From positions 121,457-185,456 of the forward strand of contig CAVSTS010000008.1 in NCBI GenBank assembly GCA_963730925.1: DNA of 64,000 nt, written 5' to 3'. The DNA comes from an uncultured Alphaproteobacteria bacterium (lineage in GTDB: Bacteria; Pseudomonadota; Alphaproteobacteria; Sphingomonadales; Sphingomonadaceae). This document shows positions 276 through 62,939 of the stretch, piece after piece. Position numbers and translations under genes: made by a program. The notes below the pieces were generated by a model. It worked only from the letters and a program-made list of their open reading frames with translations, ran no database searches and was not told where the DNA came from. Position 1 is the first letter of the stretch. The number at the start of each line of letters is the position of its first letter.

Positions 276-303
276 ATGTCCGCTTTCCACCCTAAGCGGG
301 CAT
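276..303 (+). repeat. 28-nt hairpin element, copy R1 (ATGTCCGC TTTCCACCCTAA GCGGGCAT)
   Basis: Matches the 12-member family consensus (8-nt arms, 12-nt loop). Lies 105 bp downstream of tRNA-Pro. Confidence 0.75.
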
Positions 304-10396: not shown

Positions 10397-10446
10397 GCCG
10401 CGCTCTTAACGCGACAGCCGCTGACCGGAAGGGGAAAAGGTCATGA

Positions 10447-10474
10447 ATGTCTGCTTTGGGTGGAAAGCGGACCT
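10447..10474 (-). repeat. 28-nt hairpin element, copy R12, the only inverted copy
   Basis: ATGTCTGCTTTGGGTGGAAAGCGGACCT on the + strand is the reverse complement of the family consensus. Intergenic between ptrB and the MBOAT gene. Confidence 0.7.
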
Positions 10475-13252: not shown

Positions 13253-13389
13253 AGAAGCGCCTCAGGAATCGCAGGCGATCACGGCGCATACAGAACGATG
13301 CATTCACTGCTTTTTGCGGACACGCGCACGTCCCTGGGTCTTTAAGAAGGGCCGATGTTGGCCTAGCTGAGAGGTGAGGGAGCTAATCC

Positions 13390-15195
13390 ATGTCCAGCTA
13401 TGCCGACCGCCTGAAAGCGCTGCGCGAGCAGCTCAAAGCCGAACAGCTCGACGGCTTTGTCGTCCCTCTGACAGACGAGCATATGAGCGAATATGTTGGG
13501 AGCTACGCTCAGCGCCTGGCATGGCTGACCGGGTTCCAAGGCTCGGCCGGTTCTGCCGTCGTCTTGCCCGAGGAAGCGGCGATCTTCGTCGACGGTCGCT
13601 ACACTCTGCAGGTCCGCCAACAGGTTAGCCCGACCGAGTGGAGCTATCAGTCAGTGCCGGAAACGAGCACGACCGACTGGCTCAAGGAGCATGCGCCTGA
13701 AGGCGCGCGGGTCGGCTACGACCCATGGCTGCACACCAGCGACTGGGTGAAGAAAGCCAAGGAAGCGCTCGCCAGCCGTGGAGCGGAGCTCGTTCCGGTC
13801 GGGCGCAACCCCATCGACGAAATCTGGGCGGATCGGCCCGAGGCGTCGAAGGCCAAGCTGGTCGTCCAGGCGGACGAATATGCCGGCAAATCGGCGGCCG
13901 AGAAGCGCACGGAGATCGGCGACTGGCTCACCAAGCAGCACGCGGACGCAGCGGTGCTGTCCGCTCTCGATTCTATAGCCTGGGCGTTCAACGTCCGCGG
14001 GGAGGATGTCACCCACACCCCCGTCGCGCTGGCTTACGCGCTGGTCCACGCCGACGGCACTGCTGACTTGTTTGTGGCTTCGGAGAAGATCGGACCCGAT
14101 GTCGGGAAGCATCTAGGCAATGGCGTGCGGCTTCACGAACGTTCCGAATTCGAAAATGCGCTCGGCGGGCTGACGGACAAGACAGTCGTCGTCGACCCCG
14201 AGCGTGCCGTCGCCGCAATCTTCGACGCTTTGGAGCGCGCGGGCGCGAAGATCCTGCCGCTGCGCGATCCTGTGGTTCTTCCCAAAGCCGTCAAAAATCC
14301 CGTGGAGATTGCCGGTCAAAAAGCCGCGCAGGAACGCGACGGGACCGTCATCGCGCGCTTTCTCCGCTGGATCGACGAGGAGGCCCCAACAGGAGAAGTC
14401 GACGAGCTGCTCGCTTCGGACAAACTTGAGTCCCTGCGCCGCGAATCGCCCGCGTTGCGCGACCTCTCCTTTGACAGCATCTCAGGTGCGGGTCCGAACG
14501 GCGCCATCGTCCACTACAAGTCGAGCGAGAAGACCAATCGGAAGCTGGAGAAGGGCTCGCTCTACCTCATTGATTCTGGCGGACAATATGTCGACGGCAC
14601 GACCGATATCACTCGCACCGTGCCGATCGGCGAGCCCACCGATGAAATGCGTGATCGTTTCACCCGAGTGCTGAAGGGCCATATCGCGATCGCGACCGCC
14701 GTTTTTCCGAAGGGCACACGCGGCAGCCAACTCGATAGTTTTGCCCGGCGGCCCTTGTGGGAAGCGGGTCTCGACTATGCTCATGGGACCGGCCACGGAG
14801 TTGGCAGTTTCCTTTCGGTGCATGAGGGGCCACAGCGCATTTCGCCGGTCGGGAGCTCCCAAAGCGGTGGCGACGAGCCGTTGCTTCCGGGCATGATCCT
14901 TTCCAACGAGCCGGGATATTACAAAACAGGAGAGTACGGGATTCGCATCGAGAATCTTGTGCTCGTCGTCGAGCGCGAGATCGAAGGCGCCGAAAAGGAA
15001 ATGCTTGGCTTTGAAACCCTGACCTTCGCGCCGATCGACCGCCGGCTCGTCGCGGCGGAAATGCTGGAGCCGGAGGAGCTGATCTGGCTGAATTGCTATC
15101 ATGCTCATGTGTTGGCCAAGATCGGGCCGAGGCTGTCCGGGCCGGATCTGGCCTGGCTTCAGCGGGCCTGCGCTCCGATCGAACCCACAGCCTAA
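13390..15195 (+). CDS. pepP: Xaa-Pro aminopeptidase (M24B, aminopeptidase P)
   Basis: 601 aa with HGTGHGVG, NEPGYY and IRIEN metal-ligand blocks. Confidence 0.85.
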   Translation: MSSYADRLKALREQLKAEQLDGFVVPLTDEHMSEYVGSYAQRLAWLTGFQGSAGSAVVLPEEAAIFVDGRYTLQVRQQVSPTEWSYQSVPETSTTDWLKEHAPEGARVGYDPWLHTSDWVKKAKEALASRGAELVPVGRNPIDEIWADRPEASKAKLVVQADEYAGKSAAEKRTEIGDWLTKQHADAAVLSALDSIAWAFNVRGEDVTHTPVALAYALVHADGTADLFVASEKIGPDVGKHLGNGVRLHERSEFENALGGLTDKTVVVDPERAVAAIFDALERAGAKILPLRDPVVLPKAVKNPVEIAGQKAAQERDGTVIARFLRWIDEEAPTGEVDELLASDKLESLRRESPALRDLSFDSISGAGPNGAIVHYKSSEKTNRKLEKGSLYLIDSGGQYVDGTTDITRTVPIGEPTDEMRDRFTRVLKGHIAIATAVFPKGTRGSQLDSFARRPLWEAGLDYAHGTGHGVGSFLSVHEGPQRISPVGSSQSGGDEPLLPGMILSNEPGYYKTGEYGIRIENLVLVVEREIEGAEKEMLGFETLTFAPIDRRLVAAEMLEPEELIWLNCYHAHVLAKIGPRLSGPDLAWLQRACAPIEPTA

Positions 15196-49435: not shown

Positions 49436-49891
49436 CGGCCCCCTTTCGCTATCCTCCTCAACCTCTGCATCTGGAACAAGAGCAATGCGGGGATGGGCTC
49501 GCTCTATCGTTCCAAGCACGAGCTTGTGTTCGTTTACCGGGTTGGCTCGTCGCCCCACTTGAATGCCGTCGAACTGGGTAAGCACGGCCGCAATCGCACA
49601 AATGTTTGGGACTATGCGTCGGTTAACTCGATGGCCGGTAGCCGCCGCGAAGACCTTGCGCTCCATCCGACCGTCAAGCCGGTCTCCTTGGTTGCGGACG
49701 CCATCCAGGACGTCACCCGACGAGGTGATCTCGTCTTCGACATGTTCAGCGGGTCGGGGACCACGCTGATCGCAGCAGAGCGCACCGGCCGACACTTCCG
49801 CGGATGCGACATCGATCCGGTGTACGTCGACGTTGCTGTGGAGCGCTGGTCGCAGCTGACCGGCGGCACCCCCGTCGTGGAACGAGCATGA
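49436..49891 (+). pseudogene. 5'-truncated N4/N6 DNA methyltransferase (phage ParB-methylase type), C-terminal part only
   Basis: Open frame begins right after a TAA with ..NLCIWNKSNAGMGSLYRSKHELVFVY.., then HPTVKP and FSGSGTT motifs. The N-terminal SAM/DPPY part is absent. Confidence 0.7.
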
Positions 49892-50541
49892 GCGGACGTT
49901 GGGCCAAGGGCCAAAGCGGCAATCCTGCGGGGCGACCGAAGAAGCGGCGCCCGCATGTGTCGGCGTTCGACATCATCTTCGACCAGAGCCTCACCGTCGC
50001 GCAGAACGGTGTTCAGCGTGAGCTCACTGTCGAAGAAGTGCTTCAGCTCAAGACCTATCAGGCTGCGCTCAAGGGGAGCAAAATGGCGATCCGCGCCGTC
50101 CTCAAGATGATCCAAAAGCGGGAGGTCGCGCTCGCTAAGTGCGCGCCCGCCCCCGTTCACAAGCCGATGGACTTTCGTTGGGAGCACGATCCACGCAATG
50201 CTGACGCGGCAATGCTGCTGTTTGGTACTACCGTTCCCGACCCAAGCTGGTCAGGCCCGTGCCAATACAGAACGCGGATGAAACTCGCGACTTGGGCCAC
50301 GCAGACGGCTCTTAGTCGGCCGGGAAGAAAGTCACTCGAGCCGAAGCAAATTGAGGACATCGAACGGGCCACCTTCACCCCCAGAACCTCAAGTGGCCGA
50401 GGGGTGGTCAGAGATGAGCGAGAGCCCGCAATCCGAAGAGGTTGGTTACGGCAAACCGCCTGCCGCCACACGGTTCAAGAAAGGCCAGAGCGGCAATCCG
50501 AAGGGGCGGCCCAAGGGTCGACGCCGAGACACTCCTTATGA
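49888..50541 (+). CDS. DUF5681-type phage-associated protein
   Basis: N-terminal KGQSGNPAGRPKK signature. ATG overlaps the methylase stop. The C-terminal end is uncertain because it overlaps the next gene by 128 nt. Confidence 0.55.
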   Translation: MSGRWAKGQSGNPAGRPKKRRPHVSAFDIIFDQSLTVAQNGVQRELTVEEVLQLKTYQAALKGSKMAIRAVLKMIQKREVALAKCAPAPVHKPMDFRWEHDPRNADAAMLLFGTTVPDPSWSGPCQYRTRMKLATWATQTALSRPGRKSLEPKQIEDIERATFTPRTSSGRGVVRDEREPAIRRGWLRQTACRHTVQERPERQSEGAAQGSTPRHSL

Positions 50542-51127
50542 TCACCTTCTTGGACAGAGGGTCGCGTCCGGGAAGGCGGGAGCGAGGGCAGGGTCACTGC
50601 ACCTGAAGCCTTTCTTTTGCACATCACGAAGCGGGATGGAGGGGGATAGCTCGAGTGCTCGTGCGTCACTTGCGGCGATAGAAGAGGCGCGGAGCAGGCG
50701 GCCGACCTTTGAAACTCAGAACTTCACGCTCGTCTGGAAAAGCGTGAGTCCTGGCGGCGTCGGGTGTGCCCTGGATGCGCTCAGGATGGCACACAAGCTG
50801 CATCGGCATTCAGAGCAAGCTCGTTATCAACTTAATCCTTGGATCGTTGAAGCTGCACTCGCGCGGCTTGGCTCCCGACAGCTTTCAGTCGAAGAGCAGC
50901 GAACTGTCGTTGAGGCCACACGCACCGGAGAAGGTGAATTGGCCCGACTGGTGGAATGTCGATCAAGACCGGGATTAATGTCTGCTTTCGACCCATTCCG
51001 GACATTCCGCGCGGAGGTTGCCCTGCAACGGCCCACTCCAAGGCTGGATCAGAACGCGCGAGGTCTGACCTCCATGCCGAGTTGCGATGTTCTGGGGCGG
51101 GGCCTCGCCAGTCGCGGTAACGGCTAA
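50414..51127 (+). pseudogene. Second DUF5681-type gene, probably decayed
   Basis: VGYGKPPAATRFKKGQSGNPKGRPKG signature. Between about 50545 and 50640 the protein-like sequence (RVREGGSEGRVTAPEAFLLHITKR) lies in another frame. The 3' end runs through hairpin R2. Confidence 0.5.
50978..51005 (+). repeat. 28-nt hairpin element, copy R2
   Basis: ATGTCTGC TTTCGACCCATT CCGGACAT. Confidence 0.7.
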
Positions 51128-51256
51128 GCGTCGCTGTAGTTGAGCGCGCCACCATGGAACGCAAGGCGCCCAGACCACGTTACTTCCTTCCTGATTTCGG
51201 CATCCGCATCCGATTGGAATTGTAAGTTGCCTCGCGAGAAAAGGTCGGAACGGCGG

Positions 51257-52798
51257 ATGGAAGCGGCGCTGTACGAGCGTCTCGTCCAGTCGGTCGTGGA
51301 TTATGCCATCTTCATGCTTGACGAACAGGGGCATGTGTCAAGCTGGAATCCTGGCGCGGAGCGCATCAAGGGATACAGCGCGGATGAAATCCTCGGGGAG
51401 CATTTTTCCCGCTTCTACACCCCAGAGGATCTAAAGAGGGACATTCCGGGCAAGGCACTGGAAACGGCAAGACGGGAAGGTCGCTTTACAGCCGAAGGGT
51501 GGCGGATGCGGAAGGACGGCACCCGCTTCTGGGCTAGTGTCGTCATTGATCCGGTGATCGAGAACGAGAAGGTTATCGGTTTCGCCAAGGTCACTCGGGA
51601 TCTCACGGAACGTCGGGAGTTGCAGCTCGAGCTAGAGCGTTCACAAGAGGCGTTGTTCCAATCCCAGAAGATGGAAGCGGTTGGTCAGCTGACGGGCGGA
51701 ATCGCGCACGACTTCAACAATCTACTGACGGGAATCACTGGAAGCTTAGACATGCTGAAGGTGCGCCTTGCCCAGGGTAGGGTCAATGAGCTCGAGCGGT
51801 ACATCGTGGCGGCACAGGGCGCTTCAGGGCGTGCCGCCACCCTGACGCACCGTCTGCTCGCTTTTGCGCGTCGCCAGACGCTCCAACCCAAGGCGGTGAA
51901 CGTCAACACGCTGGTGAGCGGCATGGAAGAGCTCATTCGCCGGACGATCGGCCCCAATCTAAGGATGGAAACCGTACTCGCGGGCGGTCTGTGGAACTGT
52001 CTATGCGATCCCAACCAGCTCGAAAATGCGATCTTGAACCTGTGCATCAACGCTCGTGACGCGATGCCTAATGGTGGCACGCTCACCGTCGAGACCGCCA
52101 ATACCTGGCTTGACGATGCAGCCGCCAAGGAGCGTGACATGGAGCGCGGTCAATATGTCGCGGTCTGCGTGAGTGACACCGGCGCTGGAATGTCCCCAGA
52201 GGTGGCCGCGCGTGCGTTCGATCCATTTTTCACGACCAAAGCGGCTGGACAGGGCACCGGCCTGGGGCTGTCTATGGTCTATGGCTTCGCCAAGCAGTCC
52301 GACGGGCAGGTTCGAATCTATTCGGAGTCCGGTCAGGGAACGACGATAAAAATCTATTTGCCGCGTCACACCGGCAAGACGAAAGGGCAGGAAATCGAGA
52401 CAGAGCCAACGGAGAGACCTCGGACTGAGCTCGGCGAGACCGTTCTCGTGGTGGACGACGAGCCGACCATCCGGATGCTGATTGGCGACACCCTTGCCGA
52501 ACTTGGCTACCGAGCGATTGAGGTGGCAGATGCCGAGTCCGGTCTCAAAGTGCTTGATTCCGACGTCAACATCGATCTCCTGATCACTGATGTGGGGCTG
52601 CCCAGCGGCATGAGCGGAAAGGAGATGGTCGACACTGCGCGCGTGAAGCGGCCAAAACTCAAGGTGCTCTTCATCACGGGCTATGCCGAGAATGCCGCTA
52701 TCACCAATGGCCACCTTGAGCCGGGAATGGAGGTGATGAGCAAGCCCTTTTCGATGGACAAGCTTGCTGCCCGGATCCGCTCGATCATCGAGCACTGA
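51257..52798 (+). CDS. PAS domain hybrid sensor histidine kinase / response regulator
   Basis: PAS (FMLDEQGHVSSWNPGAERIKGY), H-box HDFNNLL, N-box NLCINARDAM, G-boxes DTGAGM and GTGLGLS, and a REC domain (VLVVDDEP, LLITDV, SKPF). Confidence 0.88.
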   Translation: MEAALYERLVQSVVDYAIFMLDEQGHVSSWNPGAERIKGYSADEILGEHFSRFYTPEDLKRDIPGKALETARREGRFTAEGWRMRKDGTRFWASVVIDPVIENEKVIGFAKVTRDLTERRELQLELERSQEALFQSQKMEAVGQLTGGIAHDFNNLLTGITGSLDMLKVRLAQGRVNELERYIVAAQGASGRAATLTHRLLAFARRQTLQPKAVNVNTLVSGMEELIRRTIGPNLRMETVLAGGLWNCLCDPNQLENAILNLCINARDAMPNGGTLTVETANTWLDDAAAKERDMERGQYVAVCVSDTGAGMSPEVAARAFDPFFTTKAAGQGTGLGLSMVYGFAKQSDGQVRIYSESGQGTTIKIYLPRHTGKTKGQEIETEPTERPRTELGETVLVVDDEPTIRMLIGDTLAELGYRAIEVADAESGLKVLDSDVNIDLLITDVGLPSGMSGKEMVDTARVKRPKLKVLFITGYAENAAITNGHLEPGMEVMSKPFSMDKLAARIRSIIEH

Positions 52799-53026
52799 TC
52801 TTCGCGCAATTGAGAGCGCATGACGAAGCGGTCGCAGGCGGCGTTGTGCATTTGATGGAGGTCACAAGGGGTCGGTTCCGAGAATTCGGAGCCAAATTCC
52901 GGATGTTCCCACATATGCCCGCGTAGCTCGGAAAAACCTAGCGCGCATGGTATGCATCTTCGGCAGGCGGGGAACTCGGGGCTTTCATTAGGGTAAGACT
53001 TTGACGAAGCCACCAGGGAGAATGCC

Positions 53027-53476
53027 ATGAGGAAGTTGCTTCTCATCAGCCTAACCGCGCTTCTCGTAAGCTCCGCCGCGCAGGCGCAGATGAATTCGAA
53101 GGACCTCAAATGGGGACCGGCGCCGCCCGGGCTTCCTGCGGGTGCCCAAGCTACGGTGCTTTCGGGCGATCCCGGCAAGGAGGGCATGTTCACCATTCGC
53201 CTCAAGTTTCCGGCGAACTACACAGTCCCGCCGCACCATCACCCGACGGACGAACTGGTGACCGTGATCGACGGCCAGGGTTCGTTCGGCATGGGCGACA
53301 CGCTCGACAAAGCCAAGGCTAAGAGGCTGGATGCGAACGGCTATGTCGCGATGCCCGCGAACATGAACCATTATGCGTTTACAGACAGCAGCGGAGCGAC
53401 GGTTCAGATCACGGCGCAGGGGCCGTTCCAGATTGTGTACGTCAATCCGAAGGACGATCCGCGCGCGACGAAGTAG
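53027..53476 (+). CDS. Secreted cupin domain protein
   Basis: Signal peptide ending AQAQ, PPHHHPTDELVTVIDG cupin motif, and an AGGGAG RBS. Confidence 0.7.
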   Translation: MRKLLLISLTALLVSSAAQAQMNSKDLKWGPAPPGLPAGAQATVLSGDPGKEGMFTIRLKFPANYTVPPHHHPTDELVTVIDGQGSFGMGDTLDKAKAKRLDANGYVAMPANMNHYAFTDSSGATVQITAQGPFQIVYVNPKDDPRATK

Positions 53477-53552
53477 CGACCCAAACATGCGGCGGGACGG
53501 ACAACAGTCCTCGCGTAGAAATCAGCAAGGTCACGGGCCTGACGAGCCGCCA

Positions 53553-53580
53553 ACGTCCGCTTTCCACCCAAGGCGAGGCT
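53553..53580 (+). repeat. 28-nt hairpin element, copy R3 (right arm degenerate)
   Basis: ACGTCCGC TTTCCACCCAAG GCGAGGCT. Confidence 0.55.
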
Positions 53581-53646
53581 GGCGGTCAAGTCTGCAAGGT
53601 CACGTCTGCTCCGTCCGGAACGCGGCTTGGATTACACGCCCTTCCA

Positions 53647-53675
53647 ATGTCCGCTTTCCGACCCAAAGCGGACAT
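53647..53675 (+). repeat. Hairpin element, copy R4 (29 nt)
   Basis: ATGTCCGC TTTCCGACCCAAA GCGGACAT with perfect 8-bp arms. Confidence 0.75.
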
Positions 53676-53754
53676 CCGCCGCCGAGAAGCGGGGCCGTGG
53701 ATTCGTCGCAGCCGCGGAAGGGTGCTACCTGCCGCCCTTCAAATGGGGAGAACG

Positions 53755-54171
53755 ATGATGCGGAAGATCATTCTCGTCGCGGGGATTGCGGCGCTTGCTG
53801 CATGCTCCAAGCAGGCCGCGCAAACCGACGACAGCAACCTGACAACGGGCAATGACGTCATCGCAACTCCGATCCCAGCCGCGTCGCCGATCAATGAAAC
53901 GACTTGGGAGTTCACCCAAAAGGGCAAGCCGATGCAGGAATCCATCGACGCCAACGGCAATTACATCACCACCTCCGGCGCCGAACACATCGACCACGGC
54001 ACGGTAGTGATGAAGGACGGCAAGGCCTGCTTCACCAGCGCTATGACGAAGGAGGGGGAGGAGTGTTGGACCGACCCACAGCTTGAAATCGGCCAGTCGG
54101 GCGAAACCGTGAACGACAAAGGCGAAAAATTGGCCCTCAAGCGCGTGGCCTACGTCCCAAAAACGATTTAG
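53755..54171 (+). CDS. Lipoprotein, function unknown
   Basis: GGGGAG RBS, MMRKIILVAGIAALAACS lipobox, 138 aa. Confidence 0.65.
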   Translation: MMRKIILVAGIAALAACSKQAAQTDDSNLTTGNDVIATPIPAASPINETTWEFTQKGKPMQESIDANGNYITTSGAEHIDHGTVVMKDGKACFTSAMTKEGEECWTDPQLEIGQSGETVNDKGEKLALKRVAYVPKTI

Positions 54172-54686
54172 CCGCGTCGAACGACGAGAAACCGGCGCGT
54201 AGATCACACTGCCTTACGAGCGGCCGAGTATCTGCCCGAGGAAAGCGGCAAGTCCGAGAAGGACACGATCTCCGAACTTCTCGGCATTCTCGATAATCGG
54301 GAGCTGCGCAAGATCCAGAAAACCATCAGAGCCAAGCCGGCGCTGTTTGCCCCCTGAAATGCCGCGCAGACCAACTCTCAAAGACCGGCTCGACGAACCG
54401 ACACTTCGGAGGCTCTACGAGAATGGGCTTTCAACAGGGCAGATCCGCGCCGCTCGCGAAGTGGCGGGAAGACATAGAATGGCCCAGCCAGGGGATAACC
54501 GACCGGGCCGCCGCCTCTCCGCTCTCGCAACGACTCACCAGCGCTTCGGGGGCGTGATGGCGAGTCGCAAAATCTCTATATCTCAACGTGCTAGCTCACG
54601 GAACGGGGGGCTTGGTGATCTGTTAGAGCGGTCATGACTTCCGATCCCGCTGGTCGCAACAGCCACGAAATGCCCGTCGACTAGCT

Positions 54687-54948
54687 TTGAAGGCTGAGGT
54701 CGGGATTTCGGCGGGCCGGGGGTACTCCCTTATCGCGTCCGCATCTTCGATGCCTCGCCTGAAGGTTGCAAAATCGAGTTCATTGAACGACCAGCGGTCG
54801 GGGAGCGCGTTTGGGTTAAGTTCGATGGCCTCGAAGCGCTTGAAGGCACGGTCCGCTGGGTGGACGGACACATGGGCGGAGTGTTTTCAGTCGCCCGTTG
54901 CACGAGGCCGTATTTCAGCGGCTCGCTCCAGCATCGAAGGAACTATAA
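54687..54948 (+). pseudogene. Decayed PilZ domain gene
   Basis: PilZ-like CKIEFIERPAVGERVWVKFDGLEALEGTVRWVDGHMGGVF in one frame. The expected C-terminus SRPLHEAVFQRLAPASKEL-stop lies in another frame (shift near 54880-54885). The N-terminus is also out of frame. Confidence 0.5.
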
Positions 54949-55518
54949 CGTACGTTTTCCGCACACTGCGGACATCACGAGGCCGAACGTGACAAAGATT
55001 ATTCTGTTGGCAACAGATCAAGAGCCCGAGGGCGGCAAGTGGCTTCTTATTCAGTGGCACCCGAGCGCTGACATGCGCATGGAGCAAAGCGGCGCGCGAA
55101 GAACGCAATACGTTCCCGACCACCTTTGGAACTTGTGGCAAAAACGAGGGCCAGCTCTCGCGCGCCAATTCGGCCTGGATCGGGTATATTATCGGGGCCG
55201 TCATCATCATGCCTAAGGTCCGAGTGGAGAGAAGCGCCCCGCCGATGCGGTTTGAGGCATGGCGTTAGGATCGGCTGTTACGTCTGCGGCGTCTCGCACG
55301 ATCATCGTACGACGAGATGGCTATAGCGCCCGCCTCTTGAACCGGCGCTCAACGACCCGGTTGCCGATTACGCGTCCTCAAGCTCCGGAACGACGCGGAC
55401 TCGGAACACGGACAGCAAGGTGTTCTTCAGGCGCGCGCAGTGCCAATTCCGCCTTTCGAGGAACCGTTTCTATATGGCCATTGCCAGTGTGCGAACCAGA
55501 CGTCGTCGCAACAGCTGA

Positions 55519-55546
55519 ATGTCTACTTTCGACCCATTGCGGACGC
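55519..55546 (+). repeat. 28-nt hairpin element, copy R5 (degenerate arms)
   Basis: ATGTCTAC TTTCGACCCATT GCGGACGC. Confidence 0.6.
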
Positions 55547-55665
55547 CGCAAGAGCGCGGGATCGACTGCCGACATTTGGACAAAAATCGTTTGACTGTCA
55601 TAGGTTAGAGGCGCAGCTTCTCCGTCCGGCGCGAGCGGCATTAGCGCCGAAGCAGGGGATAGCTC

Positions 55666-56097
55666 ATGAAACACCTGATCAAATACGCGGCCTCCGCGGC
55701 CGCGGGTGCAATCGCGGCTGTATCGATCGTCTATGCGCAGGCTCCAGTGGCTCCGCCGCCGCGCGCGATCGTCTCGCTCTACTATGCCGCGCCAGGACAT
55801 CAGGAAGCACTGCTCCGCTGGTTCGCCGACCAGGACCGGGTCGCTCAGTCTGCGGGTGTGGCTCCGATGCAGCTCTATATCCACACAGACGGGGACAGCT
55901 GGGACTTCATGGGCATCAACCCCGTCACCACTGATGCGCAAGATCAGGCGATGGACGCCGCGGCGAAAAAGCTTGGCCTGCAGTCTGGCCCGCGAGTGGC
56001 CCTGGAGTTGCGTAAACATATCGCGAGCCACACCGACACGTTCACGGTGGGGCCGATTAGCGCCGCACAGGCGCTCGAGCGGCTGGGTCGACAGTAA
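55666..56097 (+). CDS. Secreted hypothetical protein (143 aa)
   Basis: Signal peptide ending VYAQA. Coding-like composition. No recognised motif. Confidence 0.55.
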   Translation: MKHLIKYAASAAAGAIAAVSIVYAQAPVAPPPRAIVSLYYAAPGHQEALLRWFADQDRVAQSAGVAPMQLYIHTDGDSWDFMGINPVTTDAQDQAMDAAAKKLGLQSGPRVALELRKHIASHTDTFTVGPISAAQALERLGRQ

Positions 56098-56227
56098 GTA
56101 AGAGACGAGTCGCCCTCGCCTGGTCGCCGGGCGTGCTTCGCCAAAATCGTTGGAGCTGTGCGGCCCGGCCTCGCGTGAGCAGGCAAGGCACCTTCATGAC
56201 CGCGACTCTGTCGCGGTGTCTCTCGCC

Positions 56228-56255
56228 AATGTCCGCTTTCCACCCATTGCGGACA
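56228..56255 (+). repeat. 28-nt hairpin element, copy R6
   Basis: ATGTCCGC TTTCCACCCATT GCGGACAT with perfect arms. Confidence 0.8.
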
Positions 56256-56306
56256 TTAGACCGAGCTTCCCCCCTCCTATATACTAATAGCCAGCGTGGA
56301 GGCGGT

Positions 56307-56504
56307 ATGGACAAGACGGAGGCGCAAGCGGAGCGCGCCAGGTTACAGAAATTACTGGATGCTTACGAGGCGGGCCGCCTGATCCATCAAGACGAGGATG
56401 AGCGAGGCGAGTTAACGCGGGACGTGACGCCTGATCGAGCTGGCAACGTCCGCGCTAGAATCGCGCGCCTCGACCAAGTTATAGCCGAGATCAACGATGC
56501 CTAA
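56307..56504 (+). CDS. Small coiled-coil hypothetical protein (65 aa)
   Basis: ATG preceded by GGAGG. Begins MDKTEAQAERARLQKLLDAYEAG. Confidence 0.45.
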   Translation: MDKTEAQAERARLQKLLDAYEAGRLIHQDEDERGELTRDVTPDRAGNVRARIARLDQVIAEINDA

Positions 56505-56635
56505 CAATACGCGGGGGTTGCCCAGCCCATGCGATTGGCCGCGTCTGGTTTCCACGCATTCTTGCGGGCGAAATGCCGGCTTCAGCGAGAGCTTCGGCGA
56601 GGCGGTTATGCGCGTGGTAGTCTCGGCCTGGACCT

Positions 56636-56815
56636 TCAGGAATCCGGGTCGCCGCCACTCTGCTCGATCATCAATTCCACCCGCTCCAGATGCTCTTTGA
56701 ACTCTCCAGCCTCGCGGAAATCACCCCGACGTTCTGCCTCTTCCATAAACGCGATACAGTCGCGTTTCATGCGACGGAGGTTGTTCAGAAATTCTTCCCT
56801 CGTCGGCGGGGACAT
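56636..56815 (-). CDS. Small hypothetical protein (59 aa), below the cutoff of the supplied ORF track
   Basis: ATG preceded by GGAG. MSPPTREEFLNNLRRMKRDCIAFMEEAERRGDFREAGEFKEHLERVELMIEQSGGDPDS. Confidence 0.4.
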   Translation of the reverse strand: MSPPTREEFLNNLRRMKRDCIAFMEEAERRGDFREAGEFKEHLERVELMIEQSGGDPDS

Positions 56816-56969
56816 GCGAACTCCATGCGTACGCTAGGCGAAGAGAGGCCGCTTCAGAAGGCAGAGTCAATTGTCACAAACTCAAATTGAGATAGCCCAG
56901 AGAAGGGTCTGCTTTCCAATCAAAGGCGAACTGAGGCTCAAGCGAGTGGATCGGCGGCCCCACTATATC

Positions 56970-57194
56970 TCACCAAAGCGGTGTGACCGGACGATGCCTC
57001 TCTCTCGCCTGATCGACGTTCATGATCTTTGATTTGGCCTCTTGCCTGACGATATCAGCGCCGCTTGCGCTGCTGCAGACCAAGCGAACGCCTCCCCCCG
57101 GTAGGGGTTCGATTGCGGACACGGTGACCTTCTGCGCAGCGCAAAGGTCGAGGACTTCCCGTTCGCTCATTGCGAGCTGCATTGCCCTACTCAC
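56970..57194 (-). CDS. Small hypothetical protein (74 aa)
   Basis: Its start overlaps the stop of the upstream small gene by 1 nt. Contains MSEREVLDLCAAQKVTVSAIEPLPGGGVRLVC. Confidence 0.5.
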   Translation of the reverse strand: MSRAMQLAMSEREVLDLCAAQKVTVSAIEPLPGGGVRLVCSSASGADIVRQEAKSKIMNVDQARERHRPVTPLW

Positions 57195-57391
57195 TAGCAG
57201 GACCGGCCTTCAGCCGCTTTTCTTGCAGCATCTTCGACTCGATAGGTTTGAGTCCTGCGCACCCGATCCGCCATGTTGTCCCATGCAGAGGCGGCGCTCA
57301 GGCAACGCTCGCGCACGTTCACCAAGCGGGTGCCGTCAGCTTCTTCGCGGCACTGAGCCGCGCGTTCATTGTAAAAGTCTAACGTCGACAT
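57194..57391 (-). CDS. Small hypothetical protein (65 aa)
   Basis: MSTLDFYNERAAQCREEADGTRLVNVRERCLSAASAWDNMADR. First gene of a two-gene small operon. Confidence 0.5.
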   Translation of the reverse strand: MSTLDFYNERAAQCREEADGTRLVNVRERCLSAASAWDNMADRVRRTQTYRVEDAARKAAEGRSC

Positions 57392-57455
57392 ACGGAGCTA
57401 TCCTTTGATGCGGTGCCCAAGCTCCGCGACACTCGCGGAGCCCGGACCCGGGTGT

Positions 57456-57662
57456 TTAGGCGTTCTGCAGGTTCACCGCGCTGGCGCGGCCCCGCTTGTC
57501 GTTCTCCAGCTCGTAGGTGACACGCTGCTCGCGATCGAGCGTGCGCATGCCCGATGCTTCGACAGCGCTGATGTGCACGAACGCATCGCTGCTCCCGTCC
57601 TCAGGCTGAATGAAGCCGTACCCTTTGTCGTTGTTGAAGAACTTGACGGTTCCGGTGATCAT
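57456..57662 (-). CDS. cspA: Cold-shock protein, CspA family
   Basis: 68 aa with RNP1 KGYGFI and RNP2 AFVHIS. The upstream part of the 288-aa ORF is spurious. Confidence 0.9.
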   Translation of the reverse strand: MITGTVKFFNNDKGYGFIQPEDGSSDAFVHISAVEASGMRTLDREQRVTYELENDKRGRASAVNLQNA

Positions 57663-57862
57663 TTTGACAGTTGCTTCCGTGGCGACCGCCAATCGGCCCA
57701 CCATTGCTATGAGAGGCGAGAGAAGGAAAAGGAGCCGCAAAGCACCGTAAACCGTCCGAATGCGACTAGTAGCAACCCCTAAATCGAGCCTGTCACCGCA
57801 CTTAACAATGCGGACCCGACTTGACCTTACCTCCGAAGCACTAACTACCGTGGCTAGGGCGA

Positions 57863-57890
57863 ATGTCCGCTTTCCACCCATTGCGGACCT
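57863..57890 (+). repeat. 28-nt hairpin element, copy R7
   Basis: ATGTCCGC TTTCCACCCATT GCGGACCT. Confidence 0.75.
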
Positions 57891-57972
57891 TGGGTCGCGC
57901 TGCCACCCTATGCCGATGGAGCTCGCGGCTGGTGCAGAAGCCGGTTGAGACCAGCCTTGAGGGGACCGTGGG

Positions 57973-58335
57973 ATGACATACCGCCATTTGCGACGCCGTC
58001 TGCAAGCGATAGTCGATGCTGCCTTCGACGAATTGGATTCGCACTTCGGAGGCGATCCGGAAACCGCCGTGGAGCGACTTCCGGAGCCGCTTAATTCTGA
58101 AGAACACGCCTCGTACGCTGAGTGTATGTTCGCCGCCATGGGCATCCGGGGGGTAGCCGCAAGCACCAACAAAGTTTTACGGAGTCTGGACCGCGATCGA
58201 TCAGGCATTGCGGAGGGTAGCAGCGCGGAGAAATCGTACGCACGAATAGTGGAGTTCGCTGAGCGTACCCTTGAGACAGAGATGGCGAGATTCCGGCTGG
58301 CAGTTGAGCGGTATGAGAACACTAGAACTAACTAA
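57973..58335 (+). CDS. Hypothetical protein (120 aa)
   Basis: Coding-like composition. No recognised motif. Confidence 0.4.
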   Translation: MTYRHLRRRLQAIVDAAFDELDSHFGGDPETAVERLPEPLNSEEHASYAECMFAAMGIRGVAASTNKVLRSLDRDRSGIAEGSSAEKSYARIVEFAERTLETEMARFRLAVERYENTRTN

Positions 58336-58365
58336 CCTCCACGCGGCGCCCATACGCTCGGCCTT

Positions 58366-58393
58366 ACGTCCGCTTTCCACCCAAAGCAGACAT
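58366..58393 (+). repeat. 28-nt hairpin element, copy R8
   Basis: ACGTCCGC TTTCCACCCAAA GCAGACAT. Confidence 0.7.
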
Positions 58394-58407
58394 TGGGGGC
58401 CGAGTGA

Positions 58408-58908
58408 CTAGGTTATCTGCCGAATTATGCCTTCAGACCGAGCCACCGTTAGTCCGAGCTTTCGGATGGTCAGCTTCATTCGGGCCGATTTACCGTCAGG
58501 AAGCGGCGTGAGCCATTGTTCGGCTGACAAGCCGCCCTTCATCCTGAACTGGAACCGAAAGCGGCCCCCCACTTCCTCGATCCTAACCGGCCCACTCGCC
58601 TCAGTCATAGTCCCCGCATAGCGCCCCGGAGCGACCTGCCGTATTTCCCAGCGGCGGTCGTGTGGCGGACGGCCTTCGTCCTCAACTCTTTGCACAAGAT
58701 AAAGCGATCCATCACGCCTGATCAGCCCGCGACCAATGCTTCGTGTTCTAAAGGCCTTCTTCATGGCCACTTTCATGGTACTCACCGCGACTGTGCTGCC
58801 TTGGAAGAAGCGTAGAGGATCGCGCACCCGTCCGCTCCCCGCAGCACTTGATGTCAGTGCTGTGGCTACCAGGGCCATTGCGATCGCCGGTGTCCCTAGG
58901 TGCGTCAT
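58408..58908 (-). CDS. DUF3833-like protein
   Basis: GGGAGG RBS, start MTHLGTPAIAMAL, and the FFQGSTVA...RRWEIRQVAPGRYAGT pattern reminiscent of DUF3833. Confidence 0.55.
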   Translation of the reverse strand: MTHLGTPAIAMALVATALTSSAAGSGRVRDPLRFFQGSTVAVSTMKVAMKKAFRTRSIGRGLIRRDGSLYLVQRVEDEGRPPHDRRWEIRQVAPGRYAGTMTEASGPVRIEEVGGRFRFQFRMKGGLSAEQWLTPLPDGKSARMKLTIRKLGLTVARSEGIIRQIT

Positions 58909-58916
58909 GACCTCCC

Positions 58917-59144
58917 TTAACCCATGCGCAGCGGCTGACGATGCGCTCTTAGGGACGGACGCCGCTTGCGCGTGACCAGGTATCGAGTGACGAGCGCTAT
59001 AATCGTGAGTCCAATTCCAACGTATGCTGGCCACAACACGGCACCCGAGATCGCAAGCGCAGCTCCTCCAGACAACGTTAGTAGGCCGATTAGAGCCAAA
59101 GCGTCGAGGCCAAACAAAATGGCCGGCTCCTCTCCCAGACCCAT
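58917..59144 (-). CDS. Small two-TM membrane protein (75 aa)
   Basis: Two hydrophobic helices followed by a basic tail. Ends 9 nt before the DUF3833 start. Confidence 0.45.
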   Translation of the reverse strand: MGLGEEPAILFGLDALALIGLLTLSGGAALAISGAVLWPAYVGIGLTIIALVTRYLVTRKRRPSLRAHRQPLRMG

Positions 59145-59195
59145 ATGAACTCAACGCGGCGGGAGCCGGTTGAATTTCAGCCGGTTGTTGGCCGC

Positions 59196-59978
59196 TTATC
59201 GCTTCACCATAAAGGTGTAAGTCAATCCGACCCCGGCTGACAGCTGGTTCTTCGAGCCGAACTCGCGCACGATCGGTGACTTCGCAGCGCCGCTTACGAG
59301 CCGCTCGTAGCGACCAAAGCCAAAAAGACCCCAATCGCGGCTGAACTGGTAGGTCAAGCCGCTCGTCGCAGCTATGGCGTGCAACCCACCGTCCGGCCGG
59401 TATGCTTGGAGCCCTGACGCGGCGGATGCCTCTGGACTTACACCGAACCACTCACGCTGATATCGCGCGTCGGAGACAAGCAAACGCGGACCGATCGAGA
59501 CCACGTAGCGGTCTCCATCGCGCCACACATGATCAGCCCCGAGGCTCGCGACCAGTCCCTCATGCCCGCCAACTCCTTTGCGTATCTCGCCGCGCAAGCG
59601 AATCGAGTCGCTCACCTGGTATTGCGCAAAAGCCCCAGCTTCGAAGGTTCTCGGCACCTTGCCGACCTGGGCGCCGACTTCAGAATCGTTGCGACGGCTC
59701 TGGATGTTGGCAACGGGTCCGATCGAAAAGCCGCCGCTGGAGAGCAATTTGATGTCGAAGTTATCGTCCGGCGCCTCGAAGTCGAAGGGCCCCGAGTCTC
59801 GCTTGATCGCCAGGTCCCAGAGCGGAGCCCACTCGCGTCCGTCGGCACCAATATATTCGGGTCGGACTTGGGCGCCGAGGCCCACGCGCACACGGATGCT
59901 GTGGTCACCATCCTGAGCCATCGCCGCGTTAAGCGGGAGCAGGAGAACCCCCGACGCAAACACCCAGAAAATCTTCAT
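59196..59978 (-). CDS. MipA/OmpV family outer-membrane protein
   Basis: Start at MKIFWVFASGVLLLPLNAAMAQ (signal peptide), beta-strand-rich, C-terminal LTYTF motif. Confidence 0.75.
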   Translation of the reverse strand: MKIFWVFASGVLLLPLNAAMAQDGDHSIRVRVGLGAQVRPEYIGADGREWAPLWDLAIKRDSGPFDFEAPDDNFDIKLLSSGGFSIGPVANIQSRRNDSEVGAQVGKVPRTFEAGAFAQYQVSDSIRLRGEIRKGVGGHEGLVASLGADHVWRDGDRYVVSIGPRLLVSDARYQREWFGVSPEASAASGLQAYRPDGGLHAIAATSGLTYQFSRDWGLFGFGRYERLVSGAAKSPIVREFGSKNQLSAGVGLTYTFMVKR

Positions 59979-60046
59979 CCGCGTGTTAACAGCGGCAGCC
60001 GCACTTTGTTGCACGGCCATCCAGGCCCACTTCGACAGACCATCGC

Positions 60047-60074
60047 AATGTCCGTTTTCCACCCAAATCGGACA
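60047..60074 (+). repeat. 28-nt hairpin element, copy R9
   Basis: ATGTCCGT TTTCCACCCAAA TCGGACAT. Confidence 0.75.
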
Positions 60075-60239
60075 TTTGATGCTCAGCCAGAAGCCAGACT
60101 ATAAGTCCCCACGAGCGCCAGTGCGAACGCACAGTTCCGGCACATCTCAACAGGAGTGAGGCTTTGGAATCAAAAGCCCGTTTCTTTGATCAAGATTAAC
60201 GCGTAAGGGTATTCTACAGCTCAGACATCGGAGGGACCG

Positions 60240-61253
60240 ATGGCGATTCTCGCGGAGCTTTACGTGGCAACCCGCACCCGCAACACCGCGGATGCCGACA
60301 CCGAGAACCTTCCCGTCCTCGTCGTTAAGCGCGACGATGATGTGGTCTTCACCAAACCGCTGTTCGGCGGCGCGTTTCGAACGGCCCGCGGCTCAGGCGC
60401 CGTATGGCGGTTCGACGTGAGCAACGTGAACCTCAATTCTGCCGATCTCAGATTCGAACTCTGGGCTAGCGGCGACGATGCCTGGTCGCCCGAACATGTG
60501 ATCGCCTGGGGTATCTCCGGCCGTGTCGGCGATGAGCGCGTGATCCCCTTGGCGGCTTTCCTCGATCTCGCCAGCCCAGTCACTCCGGAGGGGAGCGGTG
60601 TGTGGATCAGCGGCGACACGAGCGAGGGAGAACGAGTCCTCTTTATCCCTTCAGTCGGTCGCGGCCTTGACGGCACCCGCGCCCGCCGCGTGATCGTCAT
60701 CAGCGCGACCGATCCATATGGGGCGATGTTTCCGGGCGGGGTCGGCCCGGGCGGCGACTTCGGCGACACTGGGACGGTCGGTCCGGTTACTCTCCAGGCT
60801 GGCGCCGCCGGGCGCCTCATGCTGAGCTACACGCTTCCCGCGACCCCCCAGGGAGATCTCGGCCATGGTCAAGGCGCGTTCTACATCGTCGACCTCGCAG
60901 CGCCGTTCAGCCGCGCCGATCTCGAGGGCGGGGCGTTCACGCTCACAATCGAATCCGAGGATTGGTGGACACCGGACTATTTCGCCGTCTTCGGCGCGGA
61001 TACCGCCAACTTTGGGCCGAACGCCCTGATACCCTTCGTCGCCGCATCGGCATTCGAGCTGCGTCAGATGAGCAGCGATCCAAGCGAGGGCTGGCACAGC
61101 ATGGTGTTGCCGACGGCAAAGGTGCTGCCGCAACGCCGCTTCCCGCCGGATGTCGACATCGATGACTTTGAAGGCGTGCTGGCTGCTAAGGGGCCCCACG
61201 ACGACGACCAGCAACCGCTGCCGGAGGACCGCGAGGTGAAGTCAGAAACCTGA
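60240..61253 (+). CDS. Hypothetical protein with two PLAT/LH2-like repeats and an acidic tail
   Basis: 337 aa. Internal repeat: LYVATRTRNTADADTENLPVLVV...DDAWSPEHVIAWG versus VIVISATDPYG...DWWTPDYFAVFG. No signal peptide. Confidence 0.55.
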   Translation: MAILAELYVATRTRNTADADTENLPVLVVKRDDDVVFTKPLFGGAFRTARGSGAVWRFDVSNVNLNSADLRFELWASGDDAWSPEHVIAWGISGRVGDERVIPLAAFLDLASPVTPEGSGVWISGDTSEGERVLFIPSVGRGLDGTRARRVIVISATDPYGAMFPGGVGPGGDFGDTGTVGPVTLQAGAAGRLMLSYTLPATPQGDLGHGQGAFYIVDLAAPFSRADLEGGAFTLTIESEDWWTPDYFAVFGADTANFGPNALIPFVAASAFELRQMSSDPSEGWHSMVLPTAKVLPQRRFPPDVDIDDFEGVLAAKGPHDDDQQPLPEDREVKSET

Positions 61254-61347
61254 GCGCATTTGCGGTGAGATCCTCGGCTCTGTCACTGTTGCGCTTGCGA
61301 CATCCCGATTAGAAGTCAGCTTGCGGGTCTTAAATGGGAGTCAGCAA

Positions 61348-61824
61348 ATGCAATGGTCGTCCGCTGTACTTGTCGCTCTCGCTCTTTCCGCTTGCGAAAA
61401 GGCGTCAACGCCAAGTCCTCCCATCACAGCCGCCGAAGCCACACGGATCGCTGAGCGCGCGGAGTCGACCTTCACCAAGGGTGATGTCAAAGCGATCATG
61501 TCGCAATACGCAAACGACGCCGTGATGATCGACGCCGGCTCGCCCGATCCAAGCACCGATCGCAAGGTGCAGTCCGGATGGGCGCAAACCTTCGTCAGCA
61601 TGCGGCCAGCCGACTACAAGGTGGTCGATCGTCGTATCCAGCTGCTGGGGGGCGACGCTTTTGTCAGCTCAGGGATCGAAACCTTCACCGTCGCGGCCGG
61701 AGCTGCTCGGCCCACCGTTAGTGCTCGCTTCACTGACGTATTTCAGCGCCAAAAGGACGGCAGCTGGAAGATCGTCAATGAGCACGTCTCAATGCCGCCA
61801 GAGCGACTAAGCACCGCCCACTGA
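61348..61824 (+). CDS. SnoaL/DUF4440-like lipoprotein
   Basis: GGGAG RBS, lipobox LALSAC, and the SWKIVNEHVS C-terminal pattern of the NTF2-like fold. Confidence 0.6.
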   Translation: MQWSSAVLVALALSACEKASTPSPPITAAEATRIAERAESTFTKGDVKAIMSQYANDAVMIDAGSPDPSTDRKVQSGWAQTFVSMRPADYKVVDRRIQLLGGDAFVSSGIETFTVAAGAARPTVSARFTDVFQRQKDGSWKIVNEHVSMPPERLSTAH

Positions 61825-61855
61825 GACAGAGGAGCGGGATCCAGGCGTGATGCCT

Positions 61856-61883
61856 GCGTCCGTTTTCGACCCATTGCAGACAC
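61856..61883 (+). repeat. 28-nt hairpin element, copy R10 (degenerate)
   Basis: GCGTCCGT TTTCGACCCATT GCAGACAC. Confidence 0.55.
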
Positions 61884-61893
61884 AAGCGACCGC

Positions 61894-62085
61894 TTAGTGG
61901 GCAGCGAGCCACGCATCGCTGCAGAGCAGAATGAGTTCTCTTCTCGCGCTCGGCTCAGTCAGATGACCTTCCACGACTTCTCGGTCGTGCGGAGGCAGAC
62001 GGCGGATGATTTCCGAAACGCTGCGGCACTGACCGGATCTGGCCAGCTCAAACGCCCGGTCGATGGCCGATCCCTTCGTCATCAT
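61894..62085 (-). CDS. Small hypothetical protein (63 aa)
   Basis: GGAGGG RBS. MMTKGSAIDRAFELARSGQCRSVSEIIRRL resembles small conserved alphaproteobacterial proteins. Confidence 0.5.
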   Translation of the reverse strand: MMTKGSAIDRAFELARSGQCRSVSEIIRRLPPHDREVVEGHLTEPSARRELILLCSDAWLAAH

Positions 62086-62155
62086 CCCTCCGTGGGTGAC
62101 CGACTGTTTTGCGTTGGGGATGTGTGCTTTTATGAGGAGACCCATCCCCGGGGCG

Positions 62156-62809
62156 TTATTCCTGATTTTCGTCGGTTTCGTCGTTAGCTTGTTCGTCTGC
62201 ACCACCAGCGTGCCCCGCAACAGTGTCTGCATCGGGCTCTTCTTCCGTGACGTTGGCCTCGACCTGTTGTTCCGTGAAGTCGGCCTCGGCAGTCTCTTCC
62301 TTCTCGACTAGTCCCGCCGGGTCGTTCGCTTCCGCAACCGACGTGAGCGCGCGCGGGACTGCGACCCGCTGGGGGTCAAATGGCGGCAGGACATCAGCCG
62401 CTTTGGCTGGCGCAGGACCGCCAACACCCCAATCGACATTCATGTTTGCGGCCGTGACGTTCTCGGCCCTAGTGACGTTCCGTGGCGCGGAAGCAGGGAG
62501 CCGGATCAGAGTGTAGACGCTGCTTCCAGATAAGAAGACGAGGAGCACGATCAACGCCCAATCCCGAGCGGGCCATTTCTGCAGCCGCCTCGGAAACAGC
62601 AGCCAGGCGGCAAGCCCGCATAAGATCAGCGTCCCGATCGCCCCGTTGCGCTTGAACGTGACAATCGTCGCTCGAAGATGCTCAGTCCCTTTGACTACCG
62701 TTTCACCATGCGGGCTCATCATCAGACCGATGCCCCACGTCATCACGGTCGCGAGCAGCAGAAGCGCGCCTAAAAAAATTCGGGCACGGCCAATTCCGCG
62801 ATTTTTCAC
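62156..62809 (-). CDS. Membrane protein with an acidic C-terminal tail
   Basis: Three or four TM segments followed by a D/E-rich tail. The GTG start at 62809 is a guess. The longer ORF runs through hairpin R11. Confidence 0.4.
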   Translation of the reverse strand: MKNRGIGRARIFLGALLLLATVMTWGIGLMMSPHGETVVKGTEHLRATIVTFKRNGAIGTLILCGLAAWLLFPRRLQKWPARDWALIVLLVFLSGSSVYTLIRLPASAPRNVTRAENVTAANMNVDWGVGGPAPAKAADVLPPFDPQRVAVPRALTSVAEANDPAGLVEKEETAEADFTEQQVEANVTEEEPDADTVAGHAGGADEQANDETDENQE

Positions 62810-62911
62810 ATCTGCCCTCGCTAGCGGCACTTTTCTGAAAGATCCTTCTGATGGAGGTCGACCTGTCCGGAGGAAGACTTGCCACCCGAGTCTGGTTCCC
62901 TCAGTCACTTC

Positions 62912-62939
62912 ATGTCCGCTTTCCACCCATTTCCGACAT
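62912..62939 (+). repeat. 28-nt hairpin element, copy R11
   Basis: ATGTCCGC TTTCCACCCATT TCCGACAT. Confidence 0.7.

Follow-up and report, generated by a model that had tools for sequence, protein, structure and literature searches.

The 64-kb window analyzed here (the whole stretch of 64,000 nucleotides, from an uncultured alphaproteobacterium of the Sphingomonadaceae) carries a segment of accessory genes punctuated by copies of a short element with inverted arms. These copies define an array of 11 sites and ~10 cassettes of one to three accessory genes that extends over 12 kb and represents one arm of the two-sided arrangement described below. A sequence-only reading of the window had taken the element for a REP-like hairpin, either tied to the assembly of the gene modules that it separates or seeded preferentially in recently acquired DNA. 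Our analyses point to a lox/dif-type cassette platform and not a REP/HUH hairpin – with the element probably serving as the core site at which a dedicated small tyrosine recombinase of Sphingomonadales and Caulobacterales acts.

Reading each position, we recovered all 12 previously listed copies, with corrections: two begin one base later than listed (at 56229 and 60048), the 53647 copy spans 29 nucleotides, and the right arm of the 53553 copy is degenerate. A position weight matrix (PWM) scan, in which no shuffled sequence exceeded the threshold, added an unlisted 13th copy, itself degenerate, at 54948. A 28-nucleotide pattern with at most 3 mismatches matched the window 8 times versus 0 in 100 shuffles, and the element center alone, with 1 mismatch allowed, matched 9 times versus 0.28 expected. 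All 11 copies within 50978-62939 lie on the plus strand, which extends the co-orientation reported for this region to the additional copy; the copy at 276 is also on the plus strand and the copy at 10447 is on the minus strand. Window G+C content is ~62% and is lower across the array and from ~49 kb to the window end (59-60%). A gene for a DUF5681 protein (49804-50541) sits directly upstream of the first array site. An Rfam scan of the window yielded one tRNA-Pro (95-171) and one tRNA-Thr and nothing else, the element itself included; with a single tRNA-Pro found, the scan did not confirm the tRNA-Pro-flanked islet suggested around one outlying copy.

The element has the consensus AATGTCCGC-TTTC[C/G]ACCCAWW-GCGGACATT, ~32 nucleotides in all. 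A logo built from 390 copies in 119 sequences (c.A-ATGTCCGC-TTTC[C/G]ACCCA[T/A][T/A]-GCGGACAT-T.G, also spanning ~32 nucleotides) shows inverted arms of AATGTCCGC with a weak extension to GCTAATGTCCGC. As had been noted from the window, the center is better conserved than the arms: center positions 9-18 carry 1.6-2.0 bits, with the exception of position 13 (C/G), versus about 0.7-1.1 bits at arm positions 1, 2, 6, 23, and 27. The logo contains no conservation beyond ~3 nucleotides on either side and no T-run after the element (position 29 is T in 75% of copies, followed by A/C and then G), in agreement with the reported lack of a U-tract.

Folded as DNA, the element is predicted to give a stable hairpin (-12.7 to -15.7 kcal/mol, z about -9). 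The earlier observation that arm changes are mostly not compensatory extends to the larger set of copies, in which substitutions are mostly one-sided. At pair 6/23, 69 copies are changed on the left only, 69 on the right only and 37 on both sides; 26 of these 37 double changes are Watson-Crick versus 12.7 expected, a small compensatory excess. Arms that vary independently in this way are easier to reconcile with a pair of protein-binding half-sites in duplex DNA than with a selected hairpin. The idea of sequence-specific recognition of a DNA hairpin, as opposed to a terminator, is supported as to sequence recognition, and a folded hairpin is the less likely substrate.

We scanned one genome per species for an exact 24-mer of the element and obtained at least 118 matching genome stretches. 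These belong nearly all to Sphingomonadales (Sphingomicrobium, Sphingomonas, Allosphingosinicella, Croceibacterium), and the matches listed also include some Brevundimonas, Caulobacter, and Phenylobacterium. Exact copies were present on a 1-kb contig of a Luteolibacter metagenome-assembled genome (MAG; L003) and a 2-kb contig of a Geodermatophilaceae MAG (L013). The two contigs had been assigned to Verrucomicrobiota and Actinomycetota, and they are more likely Sphingomonadales DNA binned in error than evidence of true hosts. Viral contigs gave only 10 matches, which ruled out a family of phage attachment sites.

A fuzzy scan of 917 kb of matching loci identified 395 element copies. Orientation is uniform in 84 of the 90 multi-copy sequences (89 loci plus the window), and adjacent pairs pooled over loci share orientation in 358 cases and oppose each other in 17. 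The element is therefore a real orientation-specific repeat family, as the sequence-only reading had surmised. Copies are spaced by a median of 535 bp (interquartile range 355-927 bp), with dense arrays in L017 (16 copies in 6 kb), L040 (14 in 8 kb), and the Caulobacter locus L095 (9 copies). We also observed 41 tandem doublets – direct repeats 25-49 bp apart, nearly all 32-38 bp – in which a CCACCC-centered copy almost always comes first and a CGACCC-centered copy follows 32-38 nucleotides later. This order suggests that sites fall into two compatibility classes or that a doublet is one composite site. The window copies at 53553 and 53647 form a looser doublet, 94 bp apart.

A small tyrosine recombinase beside the arrays

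Clustering of open reading frames (ORFs) across the array loci revealed no gene family common to most loci. The largest family in or beside the arrays consists of histidine kinases with PAS domains, often of the hybrid type that carries a receiver domain, which occur in 12 loci other than the window (e.g., L042:5513-7894, L024, L016); these are cassette cargo or neighbors. The same clustering recovered a tyrosine recombinase of ~205 amino acids in L004, L012, L049, and L076 (twice in L076), positioned 0-150 nucleotides from an element in every locus of this first discovery. A 412-amino acid phage-type integrase in L085 was considered as the array enzyme and set aside, being unrelated and 3 kb from the array. 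The 64-kb window itself contains no recombinase gene. The window array may continue past position 64000, and its recombinase gene, if present, is expected beyond that position on the plus strand.

The recombinase is 203-208 amino acids long and has PF00589 as its sole domain. It matched no curated NCBIfam family at threshold; the sub-threshold matches were to Xer and invertase models only, and the integron-integrase model was not among them. The catalytic set R58, K86, H155, R158, H181, and Y190 is invariant in our recombinase alignment (A1). An AlphaFold model (pLDDT 79.7) consists of the catalytic domain and one N-terminal helix, and in fold it most resembles XerA, XerH, Tn1549 Int, and Cre, with which it has 17-22% identity. 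The IntI fold is no closer than these, with VchIntIA a generic fold match only.

To describe the geometry of recombinase and sites, we used DNA from genomes and metagenomes around 16 places encoding a relative at least 66% identical. Upstream of the gene, 24 sites are on the same strand as the recombinase and 3 on the opposite strand; downstream, 45 are on the opposite strand and 4 on the same strand. The arrays on the two sides therefore converge on the gene (>>> rec> <<<). The proximal upstream site starts 73-76 nucleotides before the start codon, leaving 46-48 nucleotides between site and start codon, and is more degenerate than the array sites. This 46-48-nucleotide leader is conserved and contains an inverted repeat, CTCCAGCA..TGCTGGAG, that overlaps a GGAG ribosome-binding site and may regulate the recombinase at translation or as an operator.

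A search for another conserved gene on the downstream side of the recombinase gave one candidate, a same-strand ORF of ~100-130 amino acids with ~66% identity between copies. It is found in L076 (1848-2260) and L119 (10625-11064) only and is probably a cassette, less likely an accessory factor.

The recombinase has at least 8000 relatives, including genes on 432 plasmids of rhizobia, roseobacters, Pantoea, Escherichia, Klebsiella, Pseudomonas, and others, where they are annotated as integrase or recombinase only. Relatives at 57-65% identity lack the element described here and are bracketed by inverted sites of their own, with the same arm and a different center. We saw no cassette arrays in these clades, only the flanking pair of sites, and multiplication of the site into arrays thus looks specific to the Sphingomonadales/Caulobacterales clade. 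Relatives with ~59% identity and inverted bracketing sites occur on the E. coli IncY plasmid pPO125 (L219:4900-5780) and on P. aeruginosa pPA942-IMP45 (L204:5930-6670). The pPO125 copy retains the AATGTCYGC arm and has an analogous hairpin over the ribosome-binding site.

Cassette boundaries, proposed mechanism, and competing explanations

We compared array loci for homology that begins or ends at elements. Two loci from different MAGs (L044 and L108) are 87% identical across exactly one spacer (~730 bp) with unrelated flanks; the homology begins immediately beyond one element's left arm and stops within the center of the next element. Alignments ending exactly at an element were also found for L053/L072, L071/L102, L071/L101, and L078/L100. 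Two Brevundimonas genomes have flanks that are 92-96% identical and array content that is entirely different; the break falls inside the first element, in which positions 13 and 20 differ. The suspected tie between element and module assembly is strengthened by these comparisons, in which cassette homology is bounded at elements and array content differs between close relatives.

Nucleotide similarity links the window to L110 and L090 (the latter from Sphingomonas sp. LHG3443-2), in keeping with its placement in the Sphingomonadaceae. The isolated window copy at 10447 and two genes (10594-13252) sit between genes that are adjacent in L090; the corresponding interval of L110 is occupied by two elements and a single cassette. 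The region upstream of the gene at 13390-15195 is thus a recurrent insertion point (window 10397-13389 versus L090:2933-3043 and L110:5697-6800). The right-hand junction of the window insertion lacks a second element.

Several of these observations fit site-specific recombination by the ~205-amino acid enzyme at a lox/dif-type site: the arm is conserved and the center clade-specific, the two arms vary independently, cassette homology ends in the site center, and the sites on either side of a cassette are in direct orientation while those on either side of the recombinase gene are inverted. In the mechanism that we propose, the two inverted arms are the likely recombinase-binding half-sites, and the asymmetric center TTTC[C/G]ACCCAWW would give the site its polarity and host strand exchange. 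A circular cassette carrying one site would recombine with a chromosomal site and so become inserted between two direct sites, and repeated insertions would build a co-oriented array. Recombination between direct sites would excise cassettes again. With the recombinase gene between two inverted sites, arrays would grow on both sides of it, pointing towards the gene. We infer catalysis by this recombinase, the duplex nature of its substrate, the circular intermediates, and the exact crossover point.

A number of points weigh against this proposal. The recombinase was present in only 4 of the 118 element-selected loci, and most sampled arrays have none inside their 8-kb block, so most arrays would have to depend on an enzyme acting in trans or be relics. 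Homologous cassette pairs numbered only 13, 1 of them full length, and their crossover signals conflict: positions 13 and 19-20 are not carried with the downstream cassette in L044/L108, nor with the upstream flank in L078/L100. Mapping the crossover from center polymorphisms in such pairs accordingly failed, the pairs being too few and their signals conflicting. A 12-nucleotide center is long for a classical overlap region of 6-8 bp, and the recombinase model leaves the ordered CCACCC-CGACCC doublets without explanation. Cassette ORFs face either way (96 versus 73), unlike in integrons, and the proposal does not account for their expression logic.

The same recombinase and platform might instead recombine the site as a folded single strand, as integrons do with attC. 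The predicted stability of the hairpin, the strong conservation of its loop, and the strictly kept orientation are all compatible with such folding, which we nevertheless consider unlikely. Arm changes are mostly one-sided with little compensatory excess, and it is arm sequence, not pairing, that is kept across distant recombinase clades. A recombinase dimer (IntI) uses two binding sites on folded attC, whereas a lone stem of 8-12 bp would offer one duplex binding site and not two.

We attach a somewhat lower probability to the element being an older REP-like repeat that spread by other means, with the recombinase unit a selfish element that targets it and not a cassette maker. IS1111-type elements do target attC or REP sequences. 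The minority of array loci with a recombinase, the many relatives on short contigs, like repeated mobile DNA, and the clades in which the gene has two inverted sites and no array would all suit such an element. It would not be expected, however, that array orientation flips exactly at the gene on which the arrays converge, that the proximal site keeps a constant distance from it and precedes a conserved leader, or that remote relatives have cognate sites sharing the arm, and homology breaks at site centers need site-specific exchange.

An inversion system of the shufflon or phase-variation type, with inversion across the recombinase as its main activity and the arrays as a by-product, is improbable. 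Such switches rest on opposed sites to either side of a segment whose inversion alters a gene product or promoter. The recombinase gene is always bracketed by inverted sites, and the enzyme resembles the ~200-amino acid invertases FimB and FimE in size, with weak matches to NCBIfam invertase models. The arrays themselves, however, are direct repeats of whole genes: most sites are placed for excision and integration and not for inversion, the cassettes have no common partner to switch, and cassettes are gained and lost between genomes.

The sequence-only reading had proposed a hairpin of the REP/RAYT or IS200/IS605 type, recognized as a single strand by an HUH enzyme; under this reading the replication strand would set the orientation. 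We now think this very improbable. The element does share with REP/RAYT systems and REPINs the form of a short extragenic palindrome with many copies per genome and an orientation bias, and the enzyme gene is likewise flanked by inverted copies. This gene encodes a PF00589 tyrosine recombinase, though, and not an HUH Y1 transposase. No HUH transposase-like gene was found: tblastn searches of 1.67 Mb comprising the window and loci with IS200 TnpA and E. coli RAYT returned nothing at E<=1, which is weak evidence, and PF01797 is absent from the Pfam lists of five recombinase-centered retrievals. Copies are direct repeats at gene spacing and not inverted pairs. REP families are usually confined to single species, whereas this element is conserved between orders. 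Each array has its own orientation, which changes over within a few kb at the tyrosine recombinase gene, so that a replication-strand effect is not needed.

Least credible is an RNA-level or regulatory element (a terminator, an mRNA-stabilizing hairpin, or a transcription factor operator): the hairpin is stable and the copies are intergenic, most commonly between convergent gene ends ('+|-' in 110 of 386 '+' copies), but there is no U-tract or Rfam match, cassette-bounded homology and recombinase geometry would be left unexplained, and we rejected the terminator and operator readings on position and orientation, as DNA orientation is constant whatever the gene strand and copies also precede genes and form tandem doublets.

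Cassette contents

As described for the window array, where spacers hold one to three ORFs each, spacers in other loci are gene-sized. In 83% of the 233 spacers measuring 250-1300 bp, a single ORF takes up half of the spacer or more. Relative to the site, the spacer ORF is on the plus strand in 96 cases, on the minus strand in 73, and ambiguous in 25. In L017, for example, each spacer has one plausible small gene on either strand, such as a lipoprotein or a GNAT-like protein. Within the window, the segment 57454-57784 has ~70% identical relatives in L055, L066, and L072, and the L072 relative is flanked by two elements. The positions of sites, cassettes, and related features are given in the table.

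The 10-kb flanks of recombinase genes carry toxin- or defense-like domains (RES, MmeI-type restriction-modification, TIR, ScoMcrA_N). By analogy with integrons and defense islands, the arrays may stockpile defense genes.

The element opens with ATG and is translatable, reading MSAFHPLRT... on one strand and ...GWKADI / GGKRT on the other, and it can therefore seed or extend spurious ORFs. The window ORF 53647-54171, opened by the ATG of array site 3, may be one of these. Element-seeded ORFs are a likely source of annotation artifacts in these genomes.

Table. Element copies and cassettes of the window, followed by associated features of other loci (L handles denote loci; positions without a handle are those of the window)
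Feature	Position or locus	Strand	PWM score	Details
Isolated element copy	276..303	+	31.1	ATGTCCGCTTTCCACCCTAAGCGGGCAT; 105 nt downstream of tRNA-Pro 95-171
Isolated inverted element copy	10447..10474	-	47.5	Edge of ~3-kb two-gene segment 10594-13252
Array site 1	50978..51005	+	48.6	Center CGACCC
Cassette 1	51006..53552			PAS/HisKA/HATPase/receiver hybrid histidine kinase 51140-52798 (+); cupin protein 53027-53476 (+)
Array site 2	53553..53580	+	14.5	Degenerate right arm
Array site 3	53647..53675	+		TTTCCGACCCAAA; 29 nt, extra center base
Degenerate extra site	54948..54975	+	15.8	ACGTACGTTTTCCGCACACTGCGGACAT; absent from first listing
Array site	55519..55546	+	35.8	Center CGACCC
Cassette	55547..56228			Single ORF 55666-56097 (+), 143 aa, no Pfam match
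Array site	56229..56256	+	58.2	Perfect consensus
Cassette	56257..57862			Two or three small ORFs, no assigned function
Array site	57863..57890	+	51.6	
Cassette	57891..58365			Small ORF 57973-58335 (+), 120 aa, no Pfam match
Array site	58366..58393	+	48.0	AA variant (arms 11 bp, center 6 nt)
Cassette	58394..60047			Minus-strand genes including MipA-family outer-membrane protein 59196-60062 (-)
Array site	60048..60075	+	43.1	
Cassette	60076..61855			337-aa protein 60240-61253 (+); DUF4440/SnoaL-like lipoprotein 61348-61824 (+)
Array site	61856..61883	+	36.1	Center CGACCC, partly degenerate arms
Cassette	61884..62911			Minus-strand ORFs, no assigned function
Last array site of window	62912..62939	+		
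Tandem doublets (examples)	L017:750-851; L021:5989-6051; L075:1897-1961			About 40 other places
Recombinase leader, members of alignment A3	L119:9955-10000; L205; L206; L207; L121; L076			
Toxin- or defense-like genes in recombinase flanks	L205:8167-8616; L205:18682-20627; L206:17428-19410; L207:13236-15056			
Flanking site of recombinase relatives	Many metagenome loci and a P. aeruginosa megaplasmid			GCTWWTGGCCGGTTAGCGAC
Flanking site of recombinase relative	L196			AATGTCCGCTTTCCACCAACAGCGGACATT
Half-sites around recombinase relative	E. coli IncY plasmid			AATGTCTGC and AATGTCCGC

Relation to known recombination systems

Integrons are the textbook route by which bacteria stockpile and shuffle single genes, and the arrays resemble them in several respects. 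A tyrosine recombinase adjoins arrays of small, mostly single-ORF accessory cassettes; co-oriented, imperfectly palindromic sites separate the cassettes; a divergent recombinase-proximal site occupies a fixed position, as attI does; and recombinase-less arrays exist, as with CALINs. The cargo is also similar, including GNAT acetyltransferases, SnoaL/DUF4440 proteins, cupins, and toxin- or defense-like genes. Unlike integrons, the enzyme has ~205 amino acids and lacks the IntI-specific insertion (the IntI type has ~320), and its site is a 28-34-bp stretch conserved in sequence, whereas attC is 57-141 bp long, conserved in structure, and built from R''/L''-L'/R' boxes with a GTTRRRY core. The conserved ~32-nucleotide span of the element contains no GTT/AAC core, and its arms do not co-vary. 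Two arrays converge on the gene where an integron has one array leaving attI, and cassette genes face either way where integron cassettes are mostly co-oriented and expressed from Pc.

Acinetobacter pdif modules offer a second comparison. There, short 28-bp two-arm sites bound accessory modules of one to a few genes that are shuffled between replicons (PMC6449649, PMC13141974); the sites resemble chromosomal dif, use host XerC/XerD, and alternate in orientation (PMC6449649, PMC13141974). The present system likewise combines short two-arm sites that bound accessory modules with an Xer-like recombinase fold. It differs from pdif in its dedicated small recombinase flanked by its own sites, in its direct repeats (358 versus 17), and in being mainly chromosomal and alphaproteobacterial. 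Compared with proteobacterial dif sites in general, the element lacks the ATAA/TTAT inner arms. The cassette platform departs from defining features of integrons and of Acinetobacter dif modules alike.

At the level of a single site, the element is organized like loxP/Cre, FRT/Flp, and difH/XerH, in which inverted binding arms flank an asymmetric center that sets polarity, direct repeats lead to excision or integration, and inverted repeats lead to inversion. The enzyme keeps the R-K-H-R-H/W-Y catalytic set of Cre, Flp, and XerH, and its fold is closest to XerA, XerH, and Cre. Unlike Cre, Flp, and XerH, it lacks most of the N-terminal core-binding domain, and unlike lox, FRT, and difH, its site has a center of 12 nucleotides (6 in the AA variant) and has been multiplied into genome-wide arrays. 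Neisseria dRS3 repeats and NIME arrays are a further parallel: short inverted-repeat sites bound variable array blocks and are targets of a site-specific recombinase. NIME blocks, though, are non-coding units of 50-150 bp and the enzyme is an IS110/Piv-type DEDD transposase, in contrast to the gene cassettes and PF00589 tyrosine recombinase described here.

On balance, we lean modestly towards regarding these loci as a previously undescribed integron-like capture system of Alphaproteobacteria. It would comprise a ~205-amino acid recombinase barely larger than its catalytic domain, a 28-34-bp lox/dif-type site, two arrays converging on the gene, many recombinase-less arrays scattered over the chromosome, and a wider family that has clade-own sites with AATGTCYGC arms and reaches plasmids of Escherichia, Klebsiella, Pseudomonas, rhizobia, and roseobacters. 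A full-text literature search found no description of the element, the recombinase, or the cassette system in the papers covered. Cury and colleagues are said to have reported in 2016 that no complete integrons occur in Alphaproteobacteria. If our interpretation is correct, gene stockpiling has been solved independently in a large group of bacteria from soil and water, with a much smaller enzyme and a much simpler site, and the hypervariable accessory regions of Sphingomonas-like genomes would be explained. Annotators would gain a marker for cassette boundaries and a flag for ATG-seeded spurious ORFs, and a ~205-amino acid recombinase with a ~30-bp site could serve genome engineering.

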